A stretch of DNA of 64,000 nt from Minisyncoccota bacterium (GTDB taxonomy: Bacteria; Patescibacteriota; Minisyncoccia; Phycocordibacterales; PALSA-1337). Position 1 is the stretch's first letter. Each line of letters starts with the position of its first letter. The stretch covers positions 74,467 to 138,466 of the forward strand of contig JBAZRG010000001.1 in the NCBI GenBank assembly GCA_041663145.1, written 5' to 3'. Position numbers and translations under genes: made by a program. Shown one piece after another: positions 3,327 to 58,446 of this stretch. Under the pieces are notes generated by a model that saw nothing but the letters and a program-made list of their open reading frames with translations, had not been told where the DNA came from and did no database searches.

Positions 3327-3786
3327 TTGACATATTATGTATATATGCTATAATAGCAAAGTACGAGGCTGTAGAGCCTCAATTTTGTTCCTTAAAACCA
3401 CATATGCTTGAGTAAAGCTTATTTCGCCTGTGGCGAGATTACATGTGTTTGAGGAAAACTGATAGGAAGAATATGAAAAATCGCAGGGTTACGTGGTATC
3501 ACTTTTGGGTCTTGTTGACAGTTGGCTTTCTGCTCATCATTGCGTCGAGACCATCGACGCCGATAATGACGCCGGAGCCGACGCCAGCTTCGCTTTCTCC
3601 CGAAGTGGGAGAAGTAAAGATGGTTGAGGAAGTTACAGTCCCTCAAGAAGGGATTGTGCCAACTTCGACAACGGAAACTCAAATTGTCAGCGTGATCTAT
3701 CACGCTGAACCGCAGATTCGGTGATTCAGTATTTGGTAAAATCAAACGCAGTAAAAACAAAAACAAACAAGAAAGGTAAAGGATAG

Positions 3787-22684: not shown

Positions 22685-22865
22685 ATTGTGAAGATGCGAT
22701 AGTGTGTAGTAACATTTACAATCTTGCGGGCTCCTCCTTCGCTCTTGCAGAGCTACGGAGGACACAGTCGTCTAATGGGTGGGTCGCCTACGCTTGCTGT
22801 CGCAAGCTTCGGCGGACCGAAGTCGTCTTGGTGATCGTTATACTGTGTAGTTACATTTACAACTT

Positions 22866-25804: not shown

Positions 25805-25977
25805 AGTATCAATAACGGCTTAAATCCCTTCGGATAACATCCCCACGACCAGCAGTCAACATAGTATTGGGAGTCCGGGGAGTTAATTTTACTTGTAATT
25901 TTCTGCGGTTATGATAGTGTATAGATACAAACGGCTTCGGCCCGACTCTACCGCAAGGTAGAGGTAACAAGAAGGAT

Positions 25978-26172
25978 TCAGGGTAGCAATGCCTTGAATT
26001 TTTTATAAATGATAACAGGACGGAGATAGTCTTCACCTCCGCCATCTTGCTCAAATCCAACATTCACTCCAAGAGTACACCACCAAATTTCTCCTTCATG
26101 GAAAAAGGGGCGCTTTTCGATCTGGTCAATTACGAATTTCTTATCATGCCACTTTTGAAAGTCTTTTTTCAT
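25978..26172 (-). pseudogene. Truncated paralogue of the MazF/PemK-like toxin at 28447..29082
   Basis: The 64-aa product 'KDFQKWHDKK...EGEIWWCTLGVNVGFEQDGGGEDYLRPVIIY' aligns to residues about 85-150 of the 211-aa copy and then terminates. It shares the upstream 'ATTTCCAAATAAAT..AATTTTGTTA' promoter-like block and the downstream hairpin block. Confidence 0.6.
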
Positions 26173-26443
26173 TGATTTATATTATACTTGTAATTACCAT
26201 GTCTTAACAATCCTGAATCAGTTGAGGTCAGAAATGCTCATTTACATTTCCAAATAAATTTAATTTTGTTAAAATACTGAAAGTTCTTGTAAATAGAAGG
26301 GGGTGAGGGGGAGGACTCCCCAATAAAGGTTGGCGCTGAGGAGGTCCGTAAATGCGCCGTAAACCCTTGTCCCCTTATGTTTATAAGATTTTGAACAGAG
26401 TCTGATCATTTGCCATTAATTGTTGATTTGAGTTAGTATTCAC

Positions 26444-26860
26444 GTGAATACCATAAATAGCACTACTATGAAATCCGTAACAATATGTTCAAGCAATAAG
26501 TTTGCAAAAGAAGCACTGGCCTTTGCTGAAGAATTAAAGAAGCTTGGCGTTACCGTCCTTGCTCCACATTATTATGCTTATAATTACGGGGATGTGGACA
26601 AGGTTGAGGGTCACAATAAGAAATTCATAGCTATGGGGCTCACGCATGATCATTTCAATAAAATCAAGAAAGGGGATGTCATATTCATCTTCAATAAGGA
26701 CGGCTATAGTGGCAACAGTGTCACACTTGAACTTGGCTATGCAACGGCTTTGGGGAAAATTATTTATGCTCTTTCTGATAAGGATCCTGAGACATGCAGA
26801 GATATATTATTTACCGGGTATGCAGATACACCGGAGAAGCTAGCTAAATTACTCAAATGA
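26444..26860 (+). CDS. Nucleoside 2-deoxyribosyltransferase-like (NDT/Rcl fold) protein
   Basis: C-terminal 'SVTLELGYATALGKIIYAL' contains the catalytic-Glu motif of the NDT family. The likely start is Met 'MKSVTIC'. Confidence 0.55.
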   Translation: MNTINSTTMKSVTICSSNKFAKEALAFAEELKKLGVTVLAPHYYAYNYGDVDKVEGHNKKFIAMGLTHDHFNKIKKGDVIFIFNKDGYSGNSVTLELGYATALGKIIYALSDKDPETCRDILFTGYADTPEKLAKLLK

Positions 26861-27306
26861 AATCAAAAGTAAAAATTTACGTACTTGGAAGTAGTCATTT
26901 CCAAGAAGAAATGGTTAAGTGTTCTGAACAATTGCGTACCTTGGGGCACGGTGGATGGATCCATCCAGATTATGAGGCCTTTGTGCGAGGTGAGAAACAA
27001 GACATTGTTAGTCGTTGGTTAAGTGGTGAACATGCCGCAGTTAAACGAGAGAATAATTATCTAAAGGAACATTACGAGCATATCTTGGAAAGTGATGCGA
27101 TCCTCATAGTAAATGCCGAAAAGAATGGCGTTAAAAACTATATCGGTGGAAATGTGCTAATTGAAATGGGACAAGCTTTTGTCAATAACAAGAAAATCTT
27201 CTTCCTCTATGGTATGCCTACAAAGTCTGCATATCTAGATGAAATTGAGTGTATGGATCCTATTTGTCTAAACGGAAAATTGGCGGATATTAAGAAGTAT
27301 TTATAG
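26857..27306 (+). CDS. Nucleoside 2-deoxyribosyltransferase-like protein, second paralogue
   Basis: 'KIYVLGSS' N-terminus and 'GGNVLIEMGQAFVNNKKIFFL' Glu motif. Overlaps the upstream gene by ATGA. Confidence 0.55.
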   Translation: MKSKVKIYVLGSSHFQEEMVKCSEQLRTLGHGGWIHPDYEAFVRGEKQDIVSRWLSGEHAAVKRENNYLKEHYEHILESDAILIVNAEKNGVKNYIGGNVLIEMGQAFVNNKKIFFLYGMPTKSAYLDEIECMDPICLNGKLADIKKYL

Positions 27307-27309
27307 ATA

Positions 27310-28050
27310 ATGGCTTAACAAAGCCAGATTTAGCATATCCTATTGGACAAAGTGTCAAAATGCTTGACAAATGCTGTGGGTATGCTATACTTGTCGTGTC
27401 AGGATAAGGTATTGGATACAATCTTGATGTGCTTAGTAGGCACTTTCTTCAGTACATTGTAAGTCAAGTCAGTTTCGAGGGCGCGAAGCATTTCTTCTTC
27501 GCCCTCGTCTTTGCGGTTTGGCGCTTCGGGGGTTCGTCCCACGTGCTACCGGCCGCATGTAAAAGGGCAGTTCTGGCTATAGCCTCTCTATCAGAAAGAG
27601 CCAGATAAGTGAAATTGGGTTGCAGGTATTTGTGAGAAACAAATACCACGCATGCGTTTCACTTAAGGAGATTCATTTCTCTTACCTCCATGCTTTGGCA
27701 CAAAAAGTGGAGGCGGACAACAGTTAGAATGTGTCTTGCTCGATACCCCTGAAAGAGAAAATCTGAAAGCAATATTTCAGGAAGGGGATTGAGGACAGAA
27801 TCATCTCGCGAGGATTCTATGTGGGGGTAGTAAGTGGCAAGTCGCCCACCTTCATGACCCGTCAAGCTTTCATGCGAACAAGGTTTGCCGCATGAGCCAC
27901 CCAGCATCATCTGGTGTTGGTTACAAAAGAATTTCCGAGTGGAAGTTCTGCAAACCATTAGTTACCTGCCCCTGAGCTGCGCCACATTTTGGCGATGGCT
28001 CGGGGGTTTTCTTTTTATACTAATCATAGTGGTGGAATGAAAGCTGTACA
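27310..28050. other. About 740 bp non-coding, GC-enriched, hairpin-rich region (candidate structured RNA or decayed foreign DNA)
   Basis: No ORF longer than 99 aa in any frame. GC is roughly 50% against about 38% in flanking genes. There are strong hairpins, for example CGAGGGCGCGAAG...CTTCGCCCTCG at 27477-27510, and a GGGGGTTTTCTTTTT terminator-like run at 28003-28017. Confidence 0.4.
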
Positions 28051-28055
28051 AAAAA

Positions 28056-28355
28056 GTGTTAAATTTAGTGTTACATAGGAACGAGATAATACGCCCAATG
28101 ATATATTACACTTACATTCTCAGATGTGCCGATGATTCTCTGTATGTTGGGTGTACGAACGATCTTGAAAAACGTCTTTTTCAACATAACAATTCTAAGC
28201 GAGGCGCGCACTACACGAAGATCAGAAGACCTGTAATATTGGTATACCACGAGAAATTCGTCACTCTGAGGAAAGCTCGAGGAAGGGAAGCAGAGCTCAA
28301 AAGTTGGAGAAGAGAACAAAAATTGGCGTTGGTGGGTACTAAGAAAAAGGCATAA
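28056..28355 (+). CDS. GIY-YIG nuclease superfamily protein (YhbQ/UPF0213-like, about 90-100 aa)
   Basis: 'YYTYILRCADDSLYVGCTNDLEKRLFQHN...GAHYT' GIY-YIG core. The start is probably the Met at about 28098. Confidence 0.65.
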   Translation: MLNLVLHRNEIIRPMIYYTYILRCADDSLYVGCTNDLEKRLFQHNNSKRGAHYTKIRRPVILVYHEKFVTLRKARGREAELKSWRREQKLALVGTKKKA

Positions 28356-28446
28356 CGAAATTGCTTTTTATTCATTAATTTGCTATTGTATGGACACAAG
28401 TGGCTTCGGCCTCACCTCCGAAAGGAGGAGAACAGGTGGAAAAATG

Positions 28447-29082
28447 TCAGAATAAATTTCTGGCATTTTTTCTTAATTCCTCAAATTTTTCTTTATCAAG
28501 AAAGCCTATTTTTTCGACATGACGTCGAGTATCGATTGATCGTATTTGAGAAAGAAGAGCTGACGCATGCTTTGTGTCGACTAGTCCAACAGGTATACGT
28601 AGATGATGTTTGTTGGGAGATGATGTTAGGGGGATAACCATGCATATTCTTGGTCCAAATTCTCGAATGATTACACATGGACGTAGAAATTCTTCACCAC
28701 TTCCGTCTTGTTCAAAACCAATATTGACTCCTAATCTACACCACCATATCTCTCTTGTTGTATATAGACGCTTCTCTTCAAGTTCTGCTTTTTTCTTTTT
28801 TGAATTCCATTTATCAAAATCTTTAGAATCAAGGTCTTTGTCAATCAAAGAAAATCTTATCCCATATTCTACTTCATATTCCAGATCTTTAATATGATTT
28901 TCAGCTTTATCTATTGCCAATCTTATAAAGTTAAAATCGCCGAGATGTTGTATATCCAAATCACTTTCATAATCTTTCTCAGAAACCCTAAATTTATCTA
29001 AGGAAATTTCTTCGATTTTTATATAATTGTTTGCACTCATAATAATTTGGGATAATTTTATTCTTAATTTTAGAAATAGCAA
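28447..29082 (-). CDS. MazF/PemK-family toxin fused to an acidic N-terminal extension of about 100 aa
   Basis: C-terminal 'REIWWCRLGVNIGFEQDGSGEEFLRPCVIIREFG...ICMVIPLTSS...HLRIPVG' matches the MazF/Kid pattern. The N-terminal 100 aa are D/E-rich. No separate antitoxin ORF is adjacent. Confidence 0.65.
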   Translation of the reverse strand: MLFLKLRIKLSQIIMSANNYIKIEEISLDKFRVSEKDYESDLDIQHLGDFNFIRLAIDKAENHIKDLEYEVEYGIRFSLIDKDLDSKDFDKWNSKKKKAELEEKRLYTTREIWWCRLGVNIGFEQDGSGEEFLRPCVIIREFGPRICMVIPLTSSPNKHHLRIPVGLVDTKHASALLSQIRSIDTRRHVEKIGFLDKEKFEELRKNARNLF

Positions 29083-29120
29083 GACAGACTTATATTTACC
29101 ATTTCCAAATAAATATAATT

Positions 29121-29438
29121 TTGTTAGAATACAAAATCATGACAAAAAACCCTTACCTCAACGCACTCATTGCTTCGCTTTACATCGTCTTTGTCGTACT
29201 CCTTATAACTTACGGTCCCATGTTTGTCAGAGAAAAACCGGATACAATTCTCGCTCCTATGGCGATGCTTAGCTTATTAGTTCTATCGGTTGCTTTTATG
29301 GGTTACACTTTCATCTTTCGACCGGCACTCATGTATATGGATGGACAAAAAAGTGAGGCGATAGGGCTTTTCACTAGGACATTACTTACGTTTTCTATTA
29401 TAACCGCTGTGATAGTTATTGTTGCCTTTTCCGTCTAG
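29121..29438 (+). CDS. Small membrane protein (3 predicted TM helices)
   Basis: Hydrophobic segments 'LIASLYIVFVVLLITY', 'LAPMAMLSLLVLSVAFMGY' and 'LTFSIITAVIVIVAF'. Confidence 0.45.
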   Translation: MLEYKIMTKNPYLNALIASLYIVFVVLLITYGPMFVREKPDTILAPMAMLSLLVLSVAFMGYTFIFRPALMYMDGQKSEAIGLFTRTLLTFSIITAVIVIVAFSV

Positions 29439-30355
29439 TCGAATATATTCACGAGATACTCATCAATCTTGCGTTGATCGAGATCGTAAAAAGTCTTATC
29501 TTGATTTCGAATGTCGGTTGCTAGTTTGACACCGACGAATCGCCAATGCCACGGTTCGTAGACATAGTAGCCGTTGTTTTTTGGATATGACAGGACGAAA
29601 CCATACTTATAGGCATTCCTTTGCATCCATTCGAAAGCCGGAGTGCTTTCGAAGCCGTCAATATTACCACCCAGACCGGAAGTGATCATGTCTAGAGTTG
29701 TGCCGAGTTGATGTTCGGAGTAACCCTGATCGGCTGAAAATGAATTGGCGGTGCCAGCTCCATAGGTTAGGGAGTAATTGCCTTTTAGAGCTTTTTGCTC
29801 GGCGAATGACCTATAAGCGGAAGAAACATAGAGATTGATTTTGGAAGAAGAGGCGTTCTTTAGCATGTCTATCAAATGAGGCAGAATATCGGAGTGGATG
29901 AGCATCTGCTTGCTTTCACTGTATTGATAGGTGAGCGGTATCTCCGAGAGGCGTGCTGGCACGTAATTTTCATTTAGGAAATAAGCTTTGGAATATTTTT
30001 TAAGAAGTTCCGGATCAGTTTGAGCTAGCTTCTGAAGATTGGTGAGTGTGCCTGATAGTGTGCCATATTGATTTTGGACACCGCCGAGCTGTTCCGTGAT
30101 AGCACCGACTTTTTTCTGTTCTATCGATAAGGCATTGAAAAGTGAATTGTTCGTGTCTTTTATCGAAGCTTGTAAAACTTCAGTCGTAGATGATAAAGCT
30201 GTGGAAAGAGTCAAAATATTTGCATTCAAATCCGAAACTTTGAGAGAAAGCGAATTCATCCGAAAATGAGAATATATTAGTGTAAAGACTAGGACTATAG
30301 AGACAGAAGCGAATAAGAAAGTATTTGATTTTGGTGTGAAATTTAATGGTGTCAT
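29435..30355 (-). CDS. D-alanyl-D-alanine carboxypeptidase, peptidase M15 (VanY-like)
   Basis: 'SAYRS...EQ', 'SEHQLGTTLD' and 'EPWHWR' zinc-ligand motifs. N-terminal TM. Confidence 0.7.
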   Translation of the reverse strand: MTPLNFTPKSNTFLFASVSIVLVFTLIYSHFRMNSLSLKVSDLNANILTLSTALSSTTEVLQASIKDTNNSLFNALSIEQKKVGAITEQLGGVQNQYGTLSGTLTNLQKLAQTDPELLKKYSKAYFLNENYVPARLSEIPLTYQYSESKQMLIHSDILPHLIDMLKNASSSKINLYVSSAYRSFAEQKALKGNYSLTYGAGTANSFSADQGYSEHQLGTTLDMITSGLGGNIDGFESTPAFEWMQRNAYKYGFVLSYPKNNGYYVYEPWHWRFVGVKLATDIRNQDKTFYDLDQRKIDEYLVNIFD

Positions 30356-42247: not shown

Positions 42248-42779
42248 GATTTTGTGTCTGTAACTCCTCGATTTCTTCGGGAGTCATTTCCCAGACTTCC
42301 TTGGCATTGTCTATGAATAATACGCCTTTCAAATGATCTATCTCATGTTGAAAAACTTGAGCCAAAATACCGCTTGCTCCACGCTCGATCTTTTTTCCAG
42401 TTTCATCATAAGCGCTTATGATGACTCTTTTTGCTCGACGAACCTTGCCATAGAACCAACGCACGGATAGGCATCCTTCTTCGACATCATGTTTTTCTTT
42501 TGAGATTTTGAGTAAAACAGGATTGATGAAAATAAGATCCGATCCATCGCCTCGATATGAAGGGTCGGCTTGCTTCAAGACTGTTCCGGAAACTACAAAA
42601 ATTTGCAGGTCAACACCGATCTGAGGAGCTGCGATAGCGATGCCGTCTTTTTGTTTACCCATCGCGGTACGCATCTTGGCGATTACAGAATTGATAGCTG
42701 GACTGCCAATATCTGAAATGGGTACAGGTCTCGCTGTCTGTCTCAATATGGGATGATCTTTGTCGACGATTTCGTTCAT
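42240..42779 (-). CDS. def: Peptide deformylase
   Basis: 'GIAIAAPQIG', 'EGCLS' and 'QHEIDHLKG' motifs. Confidence 0.9.
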   Translation of the reverse strand: MNEIVDKDHPILRQTARPVPISDIGSPAINSVIAKMRTAMGKQKDGIAIAAPQIGVDLQIFVVSGTVLKQADPSYRGDGSDLIFINPVLLKISKEKHDVEEGCLSVRWFYGKVRRAKRVIISAYDETGKKIERGASGILAQVFQHEIDHLKGVLFIDNAKEVWEMTPEEIEELQTQNHD

Positions 42780-42814
42780 TTATATACTATAACAGTGTTA
42801 TGATGATTAGTAAA

Positions 42815-43070
42815 ATTACATCTGCAACCTCTCACACATCATTACATATGTATAGACCCCAACATAATGTTCCCGCCACAATCCTGCGTAATCGCTTCTC
42901 AAATTACAACCGTGTTTGGTTCCAAGGCTTCACCAAACACGGGTAATTTTTCGAAGCTCAATCGCATACTCGGATTGTTTCGGGAACATTATGTTGGGGG
43001 TCATGACATAAGCATAAGTTCGCAAAATGTTCTCGGAAGACAAAAATGATGTGTGAGGGGTTGCAGATGG
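42815..43070. repeat. Composite palindromic MITE-like element, copy 1 (inner TIR element 42855-43004 nested in an outer 27-bp inverted repeat)
   Basis: Inner TIRs GACCCCAACATAATGTTCCCG / CGGGAACATTATGTTGGGGGTC. Outer IR ACATCTGCAACCTCTCACACATCATT / AATGATGTGTGAGGGGTTGCAGATG. An internal hairpin CCGTGTTTGGT...ACCAAACACGG is also present. A second copy lies at 55355-55536. Confidence 0.8.
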
Positions 43071-43089
43071 GTTACAACTCAAATTACGA

Positions 43090-45015
43090 CTAGAGTAAAC
43101 TTTCTGGATTTATCTTGACACTGACATCTGGTGGCATTTGGCGGATCTTATCGATCAGTACTGGATCAGGCCATGAATGAGATTCTATAGATAAGAGTCC
43201 GTGGATCACAGATTTACCTCTGACTGTTGAAGTAAAAGCTGGAAAGATATTTAGATCGGCCGGGTCTAAGATTTTTTGGATCACAGCCATCTGTTTTGAG
43301 ATCTTTTCTTTTTCACCTTCTATCGTGATTTTGACCAAGACAGTATATGGCGGATATTGAAATTGCTTTCGTTCGGCGAGAGCTGATCGATAAAAATCGG
43401 ACAGATTGCCTTTTAGACCGTATTCAAATACTTTTTCGGATATATGACGCGTTTGGACCATGATCGTACGCGAAGCCATGCCACGAAGACGTACTAGTGT
43501 ATGCATGATTTTTTCTTGGATTCGAAAATCCGGTAGAGCAAAAAGGGAATCCAATGAAGCTATTGCTACATGATCGATCCGATCTAACAAATACAATGCC
43601 GCCATATCAGTTCCGAGTAATATACTACCGGGGTGGCTCTTAAATTTATCTAATGTATCATTTACTTTTTTATCGGTTTCAGTCAGGTCCTTGTCGATCT
43701 GGAATAAATCTATGTCTGGAAATTTAGTTTTGATTTCCAGAGCAACCTTGTCTATACCGATACCTAGTGGAGTCAATCTCCAACTTCCACATGATATGCA
43801 ATTTTCTTCGGCATCACATCTCTCACCACATTTGTGACACATAAAGAAATTTCTACCACTTTCTGTTGAAGTATGGAGTACGACTGGCGCAGAACAGTTT
43901 TTGCACATTACGATAGTCTCACAATCATCACATACGGTGAGAGGCGAATGTCCACGACGCAAAGTCAAGATGAATAAATGAGTGTTTTGTTCTTGATTGG
44001 CGCGAATCAACTCCTCAAGTTCTTTTGAAAGTATCCGAAAACCGTCGGCTTTAGCTGTTTTTATCTTCATATCAACCAATTTATCCTGTGCGGTCGATAT
44101 TGATCTCCATTTGAAAGGTGATCCTTCTTCGATATTTTCAGTCTCCAATCTATGCAAAGTCTCGATTGAAAGCAGACTGTCAGCTAGATATATACTCTGT
44201 TTTGATTGTAAACCGATAGTTTCCAAAGCGTGTCTTATATCCAAATAAGGCGCTTTCAAAGTTCGCCAATTTCTAGAATTTTCTCTTTCAATAATGATTG
44301 TGTCGATATCGTCTCGTGGCAAGATGGGGAATGATCCGGTTGCGATGACGACGATGGGGTGCAGAGTCTCAGAGATTTTAGTCCATGTTTCGACAATCTG
44401 TTTTTTTGTTAGATCACCATTCAACTTGAATATATAACCCTCTATTCCTTTTTCCAGTACTTTATAAAAATATTCAGAGTCGGCTATGGTTGGAGTGTAT
44501 ATGACTATAGATCGCTTACGGGCAAATTCCTGACGGATGAGACTGCGCCATGAACTGATCCTGTCGAGATCATTTGCCTGTATCGCAAAAATATTATTCT
44601 TGGCCATGATCGGATCGGAATTTTTCGGCTTTGCAGTTTCAAATGAGTTTTGCCTAGGCAAAGGAGGTCTGATCTTGTCTGATTGATCTAAGATAGTTCT
44701 AGCAACCATAGTGTCGATGATGGCACCGATCGTTGTGGCATAGTGTATAGACAATTTATTTGAGGCTGCTATAAATGCTGGAGGGAAGAACATCACAGCT
44801 TTGATCTTGCCTAGTTTGCGGATAATGAATCCAGCTTTTTTGATATCCATCTTTTGATCGACAGCATCTTCGCTTTTCGTAACTACGGCGTGAATGCTCT
44901 TTGATCGAAGTGGAACGGTTACGATAGCGCCTATTGGGACATCGGTAGAAGTGAAATATGACAGTTCTCCGGATATCTTCGAATTTGAAAGCGGTATGAC
45001 CGTAATGATGTTCAT
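43090..45015 (-). CDS. priA: Primosomal protein N' (PriA-like) with a Cys-rich zinc-binding insert; helicase motifs look degenerate
   Basis: N-terminal 3'-DNA-binding-domain-like segment, Cys cluster 'CDDCETIVMCKNC...CHKCGERCDAEENCISCGS', and a PriA C-terminal region. I could not find a GxGKT Walker A or a DExH box by eye. Confidence 0.65.
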   Translation of the reverse strand: MNIITVIPLSNSKISGELSYFTSTDVPIGAIVTVPLRSKSIHAVVTKSEDAVDQKMDIKKAGFIIRKLGKIKAVMFFPPAFIAASNKLSIHYATTIGAIIDTMVARTILDQSDKIRPPLPRQNSFETAKPKNSDPIMAKNNIFAIQANDLDRISSWRSLIRQEFARKRSIVIYTPTIADSEYFYKVLEKGIEGYIFKLNGDLTKKQIVETWTKISETLHPIVVIATGSFPILPRDDIDTIIIERENSRNWRTLKAPYLDIRHALETIGLQSKQSIYLADSLLSIETLHRLETENIEEGSPFKWRSISTAQDKLVDMKIKTAKADGFRILSKELEELIRANQEQNTHLFILTLRRGHSPLTVCDDCETIVMCKNCSAPVVLHTSTESGRNFFMCHKCGERCDAEENCISCGSWRLTPLGIGIDKVALEIKTKFPDIDLFQIDKDLTETDKKVNDTLDKFKSHPGSILLGTDMAALYLLDRIDHVAIASLDSLFALPDFRIQEKIMHTLVRLRGMASRTIMVQTRHISEKVFEYGLKGNLSDFYRSALAERKQFQYPPYTVLVKITIEGEKEKISKQMAVIQKILDPADLNIFPAFTSTVRGKSVIHGLLSIESHSWPDPVLIDKIRQMPPDVSVKINPESLL

Positions 45016-55332: not shown

Positions 55333-55354
55333 TCTAAGGAATTCATCTTTAGTG

Positions 55355-55536
55355 CACGTGACCCCCAACATAATGTTCCCGCCACAATCCTGCCCAGTAG
55401 GCGATCGTGCTCGATCGCGTAATCGCTTCTCAAATTACAACCGTGTTTGGTTCCAAGGCTTCACCAAACACGGGTAATTTATCGAAGCTCAATCGCATAC
55501 TCGGATTGTTCTGGGAACATTATGTTGGGGGTCACG
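55355..55536. repeat. MITE-like element, copy 2 (26-bp perfect TIR CACGTGACCCCCAACATAATGTTCCC)
   Basis: Same core as 42855-43004, about 90% identical, with a roughly 30-bp internal insertion (CCAGTAGGCGATCGTGCTCGATCGC). Confidence 0.85.
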
Positions 55537-55555
55537 TGTAGCACGAAAAGAGCGT

Positions 55556-55715
55556 GATTTACACAGACAAGACCTAACATCTGTCTTTTTCTTCCGAGAA
55601 TAATCTGCGAAACAATATACCAATACATTTTCCAAAGGACTCGCGAATCCTTGTAGCGAGTCCTTTGTGAAAATGTTGGTATATTGTGAGCAGAGTTCGA
55701 GGATGAAAAAGACAG
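55556..55715. repeat. Second nested palindromic element (28-bp IR ACAGACAAGACCTAACATCTGTCTTTTT), containing a 12-bp-stem hairpin
   Basis: IR arms at 55556-55585 and 55685-55715. Inner hairpin CAAAGGACTCGC...GCGAGTCCTTTG. A 40-bp block inside ('CTTTTTCTTCCGAGAATA.T.TGCGAA.CAATAT.CCA.TA') is repeated at 8047-8090. Confidence 0.8.
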
Positions 55716-55725
55716 ATGTTAGGTC

Positions 55726-58446
55726 TTGTCTGTAAATTTACTTGTCGAATTAGTAAAATTGTGCTACTATCCGCCCACTATGTCCGGACAAAAGCGTCAT
55801 CAAATAGAGGTTAAAGAGAACTCTCGTATAGGTCACGACAAAATCGTGGTCAAGGGAGCGCGTACCCACAATCTCCGAAATATCACAGTAGAGATGCCTA
55901 GAAATGCAATGATTGCAGTTACCGGACTCTCTGGTTCCGGAAAATCATCATTGGCATTCGATACCATATTTGCTGAAGGACAGAGACGTTACGTCGAATC
56001 ACTTTCCGCATATGCTCGTCAATTTCTCCATAAGATGCAAAAGCCGGATGTCGATGAGATCATTGGACTGTCGCCGGCTATTTCCATCGATCAAAAATCG
56101 AGATCAAACAATCCTCGATCGACAGTAGCAACTATCACTGAGATATACGACTATATGCGCGTGCTTTTTGCTCGAGTCGGAAAACCACACTGTCTCGTAT
56201 GTGGTCGCGCCATACATCGCATATCGAAAGAAGAAATCCTGAATACTATTCTAAATACGGTAAATACAAAAACTGGTAAAGCAAAAAAAGTGTTCGGTGT
56301 GGAGATACGTCAAGCTAAAATTCAGATTTATGCGCCGATCGTAGTCGGTCGAAAGGGTGAATACTATCAGATGCTATACGATCTATTGGGTAAAGGTTAT
56401 GATCGTGTGCGAATCGATGGAGTTGGATACAGACTGCGCGACCGAATTATTCTAGAAAAGAATCACAAACATGATATAGATATTTTAGTCGATGAAATAT
56501 TCCTGTCAGAATTTGAGGGAGCCGGAAAAGAAAACGCCAAAGAAAGATTGTCAGAATCGTTGGAGCAGGCGATAAGAGAGGCTGACGGTCTGATCAAGAT
56601 AGAATATCCAAAATCAGCACAGTCAGATGGTGGAAATAGCAAATCCTCATCCACTGAAGTAGATGGAAAACTGATGTCGGTCAAATTCATGTGCCCGTAC
56701 GATGGATTTTCATATCCGGAAGTTGAACCTCGACTGTTTTCTTTCAATTCTCCGTACGGAGCATGTCCTGAATGTAATGGTCTAGGCACGGAAAGTATTT
56801 TTTCCGAAAAACCTTGTCCGAAATGCAAAGGCGCTCGTCTGCGCGAAGAAGCTCTCAAGGTTATGATAGACAACAAAAATATTGTGGACATAACAAATAT
56901 GTCCATAGAAAAAGCCATTGTTTATTTTAAGGATATCTCTCTTTCCGATACTGAAAAAGAGATTGCCAAAGTCGTACTAAAGGAAATTTCATCCAGACTG
57001 TCATTTATGGTAAACGTCGGTATCGAATATCTGACTCTGGATCGGAGAGCCCATACACTTTCTGGAGGTGAAGCACAGCGCATCAGACTGGCATCTCAGC
57101 TTGGTTCAGGCCTGGTTGGCGCTCTCTATGTACTCGATGAACCGACGATCGGTCTCCACCAAAGAGACAATGATCGATTGATCCAGACATTGCTTCGTCT
57201 CCGAGATCTGGGCAATACTATAATAGTAGTGGAACACGATGAAGATACGATGTTTTCATCCGACTATATCATCGACATTGGTCCTGGCGCCGGAGTGGCA
57301 GGCGGTCGAGTGGTAGTTTCTGGTTATCTAGATGAATTGCTCACAGCCAAAACAAATCCTTCCAAATCGCTGACTTTGGCATATTTGCGCGGCGAAGAAT
57401 CTATCCCAGTACCTGTAAGAAGACGTGAACCAAAAGGAAAGATATCTATTCGAAACGGAAATGTTTTCAACATCAAAGATATGAATGTCGACATTCCATT
57501 GTCATCGTTGAATGTTATCACGGGTGTTTCCGGATCTGGTAAATCGTCTCTGATGTATGAAATTCTGTATAGAAATCTTGAAGCTCGTTTTGAACGCAGA
57601 AATAGAAGTGATGAGACGATAAATTGTAAAAGTTTTACTGGATCGGAGTATGTTGGAAGAGTGATTCTCATCGATCAGTCGCCGATCGGTAGAACACCGC
57701 GTTCAAATCCCGCCACCTATACCGGTGCTTGGACGCATATCCGTGATCTATTCGCCGCCGAATCAGAATCGAGAGCTAGAGGGTGGGGTGCCGGCAGATT
57801 TTCATTCAATAGACCCGGTGGCCGATGTGAGGCCTGTGAAGGTAATGGGGAAATAGCTGTTGAAATGCATTTTTTGCCGACCGTCTATGTGACGTGTGAT
57901 GTCTGTGGCGGTACTAGATTTACAAAAGAAACTCTCGATATCAAATTCCGAGGAAAAAATATTCACGAAGTTTTGGAATTGACTATAGAAGAAGGACTAA
58001 GTTTCTTTGCGGATATTCCGGCTGTTGAAGATAGATTGAAGACCCTGATCGATGTGGGACTAGGATATGTTCGACTGGGTCAATCCGCAACGACACTTTC
58101 GGGTGGTGAAGCGCAACGTGTAAAGATATCATCCGAGCTCTACAGAGCGCATTTGCAAAAAACCATATATCTTCTGGACGAACCAACAGTTGGACTTCAT
58201 TATGAAGATGTTCGAAAATTGATCGATATCCTTCAACAGTTGGTGAATAAGGGTAATACTGTAGTTGTTATAGAACACAATCTGGACCTGATAAAAAATG
58301 CCGATTACGTTATCGATATCGGACCTGAAGGAGGCGATCGAGGTGGAAAGATCGTGGCAAAAGGCACGCCCGAAGATGTTGCAAAAAGCGAGCTTAGTTA
58401 CACTGGAAAATATTTGAAGAAGTCACTGAAGACAAAAAAGCCATAG
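55726..58446 (+). CDS. uvrA: Excinuclease ABC subunit A
   Basis: Two ABC modules ('[14 protein letters not shown]', '[13 protein letters not shown]'), Zn fingers ([10 protein letters not shown]; CEACEGNG), and signature 'LSGGEAQR' twice. The probable start is Met 'MSGQKRHQ' at about 55780. Confidence 0.95.

Follow-up and report, generated by a model that had tools for sequence, protein, structure and literature searches.

The 64,000-nt stretch of DNA analysed here (hereafter the window; contig JBAZRG010000001.1, positions 74,467 to 138,466) belongs to a metagenome-assembled genome (MAG) of Candidatus Paceibacterota, in the candidate phyla radiation (CPR, or Patescibacteria). Between the stop codon of ndtB (27306), an NDT-like gene, and the ATG of a gene of the GIY-YIG nuclease family (28098) lie ~790 bp without a credible open reading frame (ORF). 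This interval contains the element considered below, a predicted non-coding transcript of ~620 nt on the + strand (27398-28017), bounded by a promoter and a terminator. A reading made from the letters alone (the sequence-only reading) had singled out the interval as a GC-rich, hairpin-dense region that might be a large uncharacterised non-coding RNA (ncRNA) or a decayed foreign gene remnant; it had not seen the promoter, which with the terminator brackets the predicted unit. An independent Logan assembly (contig L001, from SRR18595301) matches the window base for base, with 100% identity, over 26080-28470, so the element is not an artefact of the MAG assembly.

The upstream neighbour, ndtB (26857-27306, +), is a 149-aa ORF, the second of two tandem NDT-like ORFs in the ORF listing, and served as a synteny anchor. 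It has no Pfam match and takes its name from its resemblance (~30% by tblastn) to neighbours of ndtA type at related loci; the first ORF of the pair, ndtA, gave a weak match to Pfam Nuc_deoxyrib_tr (E 4.8e-5), under the cut-off. The downstream neighbour, the GIY-YIG gene (28098-28355, +), encodes 85 amino acids and matches Pfam PF01541 (E 1.7e-16). Both the ndtB and GIY-YIG proteins are 100% identical to NCBI entries, that of the latter being annotated as a GIY-YIG nuclease family protein of a Candidatus Paceibacterota bacterium.

Promoter, terminator and base composition

A consensus scan identified a sigma-70-type promoter motif, TTGACA-N16-TG-n-TATACT, at 27364-27391 (+). It matches 11 of the 12 consensus positions and has an extended −10 element, and its position predicts a transcription start at ~27398. 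Sites scoring at least 11/12 occur only four times in the 64 kb, all four with the TG, against 2.2 expected from shuffles; this site is therefore among the strongest promoter matches in the window. Approximately 570 nt past the promoter, on the same strand, lies an intrinsic terminator (27969-28017), in which a GC-rich hairpin of 11+5 bp (16 bp; 27969-28006, pair probability 0.97-0.99) is followed by UUUUCUUUUU. The G5T4CT5 run that the sequence-only reading had called terminator-like is genuine, forming the tail of this hairpin at 28002-28016. The only Rfam alignment at 27969-28017 was a generic terminator-like one. Three other ORFs in the window have a comparable, simpler pairing of hairpin and T-run at their 3′ end or just beyond it, and intrinsic termination thus appears to be in use in this organism. 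The terminator scan also returned a short hairpin just 3′ of the ndtB stop codon (27311-27326, TGGCTTAACAAAGCCA), a weak terminator-like site that the scan lists on the − strand.

The block enclosed by these signals is enriched in GC, as had been claimed: its GC fraction is 0.476 over 27398-28017, compared with 0.414 for the whole window and 0.35-0.43 for the flanking genes. In 200-nt windows the fraction peaks at 0.495-0.515 (27400-27699 and 27800-27999) and falls to 0.425 over 27600-27799.

The remaining strong promoter matches were considered in their own right. The notion that the four mark highly expressed genes was unsupported, the proteins downstream being unremarkable. The only perfect 12/12 promoter in the window, at 3327-3354, appears to drive an ORF of ~83 aa (3474-3725, +) with a predicted membrane segment, which falls below the 110-aa threshold of the ORF listing. 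Another 11/12 extended −10 promoter directly follows tRNA-Asn (40159-39879, − strand); ~250 nt without an ORF come next, and then a 239-aa gene without a Pfam family. The ORF-free stretch could be a leader or a small RNA.

Predicted fold and coding content

The + strand of the element has a minimum free energy (MFE) of −225.9 kcal/mol, against −188.1 ± 5.7 kcal/mol for 100 dinucleotide shuffles (z −6.6; with 20 shuffles, z −7.2). The reverse complement reaches −201.9 kcal/mol, and the excess folding energy is thus biased towards the + strand, by 24 kcal/mol. Eight ORF-free gaps from related CPR loci, analysed by the same method as a control, gave z values from +1.3 to −3.7. When MFE was regressed on GC over 620-nt windows of this 64 kb, the + strand of the element lay at −2.0 standard deviations (SD; robust z −2.4), and 14 of 410 strand-windows folded lower, so that the element ranks within roughly the top 3.5%. 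Clearly structured though it is, the region is surpassed by other places in the window.

The predicted fold comprises 208 pairs, 25 of them G-U, and a partition function calculation assigned pair probabilities (P) of 0.85-1.0 to ~13 local hairpins. Confident hairpins include 27476-27507, 27572-27605, 27606-27665, 27666-27683 and 27685-27713, and further along 27762-27781, 27797-27818, 27869-27896, 27901-27920 and 27928-27949. The first of these (27476-27507, +) is a 12-bp GC-rich hairpin followed by UCUUUGCGGUUU and is composed of an 8-bp helix (27476-27483/27500-27507) and a 4-bp helix (27485-27488/27494-27497), with P 0.95-0.96. The sequence-only reading had described it as an 11-bp stem at 27477-27510, and the stem is real (8 + 4 bp, P ~0.96). 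It was scored as terminator-like in the scan and, together with UCUUUGCGGUUU, is a possible weak early terminator or attenuator. A predicted central multi-branch domain follows (27515-27868, +), closed by pairing of 27515-27558 with 27819-27868 and holding the hairpins 27572-27605, 27606-27665, 27666-27683, 27685-27713, 27715-27736, 27739-27793 and 27797-27818. Beyond it, three consecutive 8-9-bp hairpins (27869-27896, 27901-27920 and 27928-27949; P 0.8-0.97) occupy 27869-27949 (+). Reading of their helix arms showed that each contains G-U pairs, which become A-C mismatches on the − strand. The G-U pairs in these confident hairpins, together with the promoter and the terminator, point to the + strand.

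Hairpins on both strands could also belong to an element acting as DNA, such as a recombination site, a replication-associated site or a cluster of protein-binding palindromes. The element does contain GC-rich palindromes of 6-10 nt (CACGTG, CGGCCG, GGCTATAGCC, CGCATGCG and CTCGCGAG), and other strongly palindromic spots exist in the window, for example at 55340-55740. However, by estimate the 8-nt palindromes are present in about chance number (~2.4 in 620 nt), no two hairpins are alike and they form no repeat family, the block lacks terminal repeats at its borders, whether inverted or direct, and the promoter and terminator would be left unexplained. We regard a role at the DNA level as the least probable of the explanations considered, and a very unlikely one.

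Other parts of the window are also strongly structured. The most structured spot by far, 55340-55740, holds two near-perfect hairpins (palindromes) of great length between two ORFs of ~900 aa; the 620-nt window from 55181 has an MFE of −281 kcal/mol, about −6 SD for either strand. The second most over-structured stretch, 42471-43400 (−3.2 to −3.6 SD, +), overlaps a 310-nt ORF-free gap (42780-43089). In addition, copies of the tRNA 5′ end are found upstream of tRNA-Gln (22725-22830, +) and tRNA-Asn (~40335-40270, −), each followed by a shared hairpin motif, CCTCCTTCGCTC...GAGCTACGRAGGAC. They could be pseudo-copies resembling tRNAs, or else interrupted tRNA genes missed by ARAGORN and Rfam.

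The region containing the element is non-coding by every test applied. The longest ORF is 99 aa (27659-27958, − strand) and the others are 61 aa or shorter, in agreement with the earlier statement that no frame is open beyond 99 aa. Codon-usage log-odds of the internal ORFs (−0.08 to +0.02) fall in the range of off-frames (−0.06 ± 0.06) and not of genes (0.23 ± 0.07); GC at third codon positions is 0.46-0.54, compared with 0.40 in genes, and period-3 power is low across the region. No ORF of at least 30 aa on the + strand is preceded by a Shine-Dalgarno sequence, and none of the internal ORFs has a significant Pfam match. We also built a six-frame query by concatenating all open stretches of at least 28 aa (963 aa in total), meant to catch mis-called ORFs over homologous RNA loci; it had no match at E ≤ 1 among 5.8 billion proteins. 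The 100-aa frame was likewise unmatched among 1.84 billion representatives (full HMMER), and tblastn with the proteins at the equivalent position in relatives (a META-domain protein and others) detected no remnant in 27310-28050.

These comparisons bear on the possibility that the region is a protein-coding gene in decay or an orphan gene for a small protein. In its favour, the 99-aa ORF has a weak promoter-like site upstream (28050-28023, −), and a 59-aa ORF on the + strand includes a hydrophobic stretch. The protein searches, the codon statistics and the want of a Shine-Dalgarno-led start all count against it, and a gene of either sort is most improbable, if marginally less so than a DNA-level site. 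A pseudogene of a known protein family was rejected, as neither Pfam, the two protein collections nor tblastn gave a trace of one. The decayed foreign gene remnant of the sequence-only reading thus gains no positive support from protein comparisons, while a non-coding foreign relic remains a rival.

The locus in relatives

Homologues of ndtB are numerous (480 at E ≤ 1e-40, mainly from CPR metagenomes), and those in the genome collection come almost entirely from CPR MAGs. The comparison took in 34 genome loci with ndtB homologues (30-86% identity), 14 loci with homologues of the GIY-YIG gene (73-81%) and, from metagenomes, six with the closest relatives of ndtB (84-90%); the total was 55 loci besides L001, and 315 kb with L001 included. 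Across the 55 loci, nhmmer --max returned chance matches only, the best (E 0.97) lying inside a 392-aa ORF. The conservation and covariation in related MAGs that the sequence-only reading had suggested looking for had no homologue to draw on in these loci, and at this locus the nearest relatives do not have the element. Blastn in distant mode against phage and plasmid collections gave no match. Scans of DNA collections used translated RNA frames as queries and six degenerate 24-nt patterns per scan; three such scans of IMG/VR and two of JGI metagenomes returned no homologue. The patterns require near-identity, and even the window's own sequence failed to come back from the metagenome collection, which makes the absence of homologues there weak evidence; similarly, the ndtB loci of the genome collection did not include the window's own genome. 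A second copy of the element was not present within the 64-kb window, nor did the element itself contain meaningful internal, tandem or terminal repeats.

In the closest relatives, L002 (ndtB 86% identical) and L051 (90%), ndtB runs straight into a protein-coding ORF, which overlaps its stop codon. This ORF is 88 aa long in L002 and is called as a 51-aa gene running to the contig end in L051. On the other side of the element, L042-L047 conserve the GIY-YIG gene and, two genes further on, a VanY gene whose product is 62% identical to that of window 29435-30355; in these loci a META-domain gene adjoins the GIY-YIG gene with a gap of 20 nt. Comparison of these loci shows the element to be dispensable and to lie at a rearrangement point, a break in synteny.

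A segmental duplication brackets the ndtA-ndtB-RNA-GIY-YIG block. Its two copies (25912-26277 and 28381-29132) are 78-94% identical in blocks and carry a MazF/PemK-like gene (Pfam) and a 33-nt promoter-like block; one MazF-like copy is truncated to 64 aa, and the other is 211 aa long with an N-terminal extension. Contig L001 ends inside both copies of the duplication. The proteins scanned from 23 to 29.4 kb included neither an integrase nor a transposase, and PADLOC and NCBIfam, applied to eight neighbouring proteins, identified no defence system and no mobile-element protein. The suggestion that the interval lies near tRNAs and mobile DNA is accordingly only loosely true: the nearest tRNA, tRNA-Gln, is 4.4 kb away and the scanned proteins include no integrase or transposase, while the duplicated MazF-like module does flank the block.

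The duplication holds further candidate regulatory features. Two paralogous small-RNA-like elements of ~85 nt (25922-26005 and 28391-28475, + strand) are each convergent with a MazF/PemK-like gene on the − strand and overlap its 3′ end. They share a build of UUCG hairpin, GNRA hairpin and long terminator hairpin with a U-run, and the stems of their GNRA hairpins differ completely (CUCUACC-GCAA-GGUAGAG versus CCUCC-GAAA-GGAGG). With folding z values of −4.8 and −4.1, promoter-like hexamers upstream and no Rfam match, they could be cis-antisense regulators of the toxin genes. Upstream of ndtA, a GC-rich structured leader (26282-26425, +) that includes GGGGGUGAGGGGGAGGACUCCCC has a folding z of −2.9 and no Rfam match at E ≤ 1. 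It lies behind a promoter-like TTTCCA-N17-TGtTAAAAT (26247-26275), duplicated at 29100-29132, and could be a riboswitch-like element of the NDT-like operon.

The break in synteny counts in favour of the principal rival to an RNA gene. On this account the block is a non-functional relic, higher-GC foreign or rearranged DNA left at a recombination junction, with a promoter and terminator that are fortuitous or left over from lost neighbouring genes, and with unselected hairpins. Absence from all relatives examined, the flanking duplication and a GC content different from that of the host agree with such an origin, as do two features of the fold: both strands fold better than shuffles, and local folding in just the top ~3.5% is not unique. 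Against it, the GC-rich structured block is framed exactly by a near-perfect extended −10 promoter and, on the same strand, by a textbook terminator, which would be an unlikely coincidence; the + strand has a folding advantage with G-U pairs; and searches of phages, plasmids, IMG/VR and JGI contigs gave no donor sequence. We consider a relic somewhat unlikely. If the element is a relic, it marks a recent junction of rearrangement or acquisition.

The position of the terminator, just 80 nt upstream of the GIY-YIG start and on the same strand, allows a different function, that of a long cis-acting 5′ leader (attenuator- or riboswitch-like) in which transcription would stop at 27969-28017 or read through to the GIY-YIG gene at 28098. 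No convincing separate promoter for this gene was read in 28018-28097, and the early terminator-like hairpin at 27476-27507 could act as a second checkpoint. However, of the 2585 GIY-YIG homologues found, those compared in six contexts (73-81% identical) have 2-219 nt upstream, with no such leader and no nhmmer match, and none carries the element; a leader function is disfavoured because these orthologues lack it. Furthermore, known riboswitch and attenuator leaders are several-fold shorter than 620 nt, no cis-regulatory family of Rfam matched, and inspection revealed no obvious antiterminator alternative. We judge a leader improbable, more so than a relic.

A candidate large RNA gene and its possible counterparts

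On the best reading of the element, a large (~620 nt) ncRNA, highly structured and lineage-restricted, is encoded on the + strand by a stand-alone gene; we give this assignment about even chances. It is preferred because a top-ranked promoter and a canonical terminator exactly enclose a block that is GC-rich, strand-asymmetrically structured and non-coding. RNA polymerase would start at ~27398 from the extended −10 promoter at 27364-27391, and the transcript would fold co-transcriptionally into ~13 stable local hairpins, laid out as two 5′ hairpins, a multi-branch core with about seven hairpins and three 3′ hairpins, before transcription ends at the intrinsic terminator (27969-28017). The large uncharacterised ncRNA proposed earlier is supported in so far as a well-folding, non-coding 620-nt unit with its own promoter and terminator motifs is present, while homologues in related loci are lacking.

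Several observations weigh against this assignment. The family has one member as far as searched, and conservation and covariation lend no support as no homologue was found. Where ndtB is 86-90% identical, relatives have a protein gene in place of the element, which is thus dispensable and could be junk. The folding excess is just −2 to −2.4 SD or so relative to the window background, and better folding is predicted for eight other 620-nt positions, in six separate places. The − strand, too, clearly outdoes shuffles (z −5.0 to −6.5), so that part of the signal may reflect palindromy at the DNA level or GC composition. Finally, the long-range helices closing the central domain are poorly determined (P 0.4-0.5), which makes its closure uncertain.

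If the element is an RNA gene, it is probably an accessory RNA, recently acquired or fast-evolving, and not a housekeeping one, given the break in synteny, the bracketing by a duplicated MazF-like module and the restriction to one lineage. Its size and multi-hairpin build resemble those of large structural or protein-binding RNAs, and our best guess, by analogy, is a trans-acting structural or protein-binding function rather than that of a base-pairing small RNA or a riboswitch. Bacterial ncRNAs longer than 500 nt are rare, and several large bacterial RNAs (ribosomal RNAs, RNase P RNA, group II introns, OLE, ROOL and GOLLD) have unusual biochemistry or architecture. CPR bacteria have tiny genomes with little spare DNA, so a dedicated 620-nt RNA gene behind a strong promoter would imply a real cost and probably a function. 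We know of no large ncRNA class specific to the CPR, and a literature search on structured RNAs of the CPR turned up only general papers on ncRNA discovery. It is conceivable, but unlikely, that this is the first recognised member of an undescribed class of large (~600 nt) structured ncRNAs carried on variable segments in Paceibacterota or the CPR, with relatives too divergent or too poorly sampled for pattern-based searches. As a single, unvalidated sequence, the element is reasonably treated as a candidate for follow-up rather than as a discovery.

We compared the element with known RNA families using Rfam 15. At the gathering score, the whole window matched only tRNAs, located elsewhere. 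At E ≤ 10 with lax filters, the intervals 27200-28500 and 27330-28030 gave the generic terminator-like alignment and chance-level unrelated matches only, so the Rfam comparison recommended by the sequence-only reading produced no family match even at this threshold. ARAGORN detected no tRNA or tmRNA in the region. These results agree with the earlier failure to recognise RNase P, tmRNA, SRP, group I or group II signatures by eye.

Housekeeping RNAs (RNase P RNA, tmRNA, SRP RNA and 6S RNA) resemble the element in that they, too, stand out as GC-rich islands from the AT-rich background of reduced genomes and have a strong promoter and a terminator. They were rejected, as no covariance model or ARAGORN match was obtained. 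The element is longer than any of them, and it is absent from relatives at the locus and dispensable, which a housekeeping RNA would not be. Group I and group II introns, including ORF-less group II introns and group I introns associated with GIY-YIG genes, offer another likeness, that of a structured RNA of ~600 nt beside a GIY-YIG-domain gene. The element is not inside a host gene, has its own predicted promoter and terminator, and had no Rfam match at E ≤ 10, where intron models would be expected, and both intron types were rejected. Unlike an intron-linked homing endonuclease, the GIY-YIG protein of the window belongs to an 85-aa single-domain family with no DNA-binding domain, which is spread over Paceibacterota at ~66-81% identity without the RNA; it scored 18 bits against TIGR01453, for which the cut-off is 56 bits.

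The MazF/PemK-like genes call to mind the RNA antitoxins of type III toxin–antitoxin systems (ToxI-like), ncRNAs encoded near genes resembling endoribonuclease toxins. This class was rejected, since tandem repeats were not detected by TRF or by repeat search and the gene order is wrong: the element neither adjoins nor is co-oriented with a toxin gene, the GIY-YIG gene separates the two, and the toxin is encoded on the other strand.

Closer counterparts are ROOL, GOLLD, OLE and raiA, large bacterial ncRNAs without a known function, of the 500-800 nt size class. The element shares this size class with them, and like them is intergenic, GC-enriched relative to an AT-rich host, multi-hairpin and without coding capacity, in an accessory genome context with its own (here predicted) promoter and terminator. 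ROOL, GOLLD, OLE, HEARO and raiA were nevertheless rejected as identities, with no match in Rfam 15 even at E ≤ 10, although models for them are expected there. Those families have many covarying representatives, whereas the element is a single sequence; it occurs in a Paceibacterota MAG with no prophage context seen, and a tRNA is no nearer than 4.4 kb. The element belongs to no described family, and its kind, that of an orphan large ncRNA candidate in a GC-rich intergenic region, is familiar from GC-IGR surveys (e.g. PMC8632094), the Breaker laboratory having described such candidates in GC-rich or ornate intergenic regions (PMC8632094, PMC2864571).

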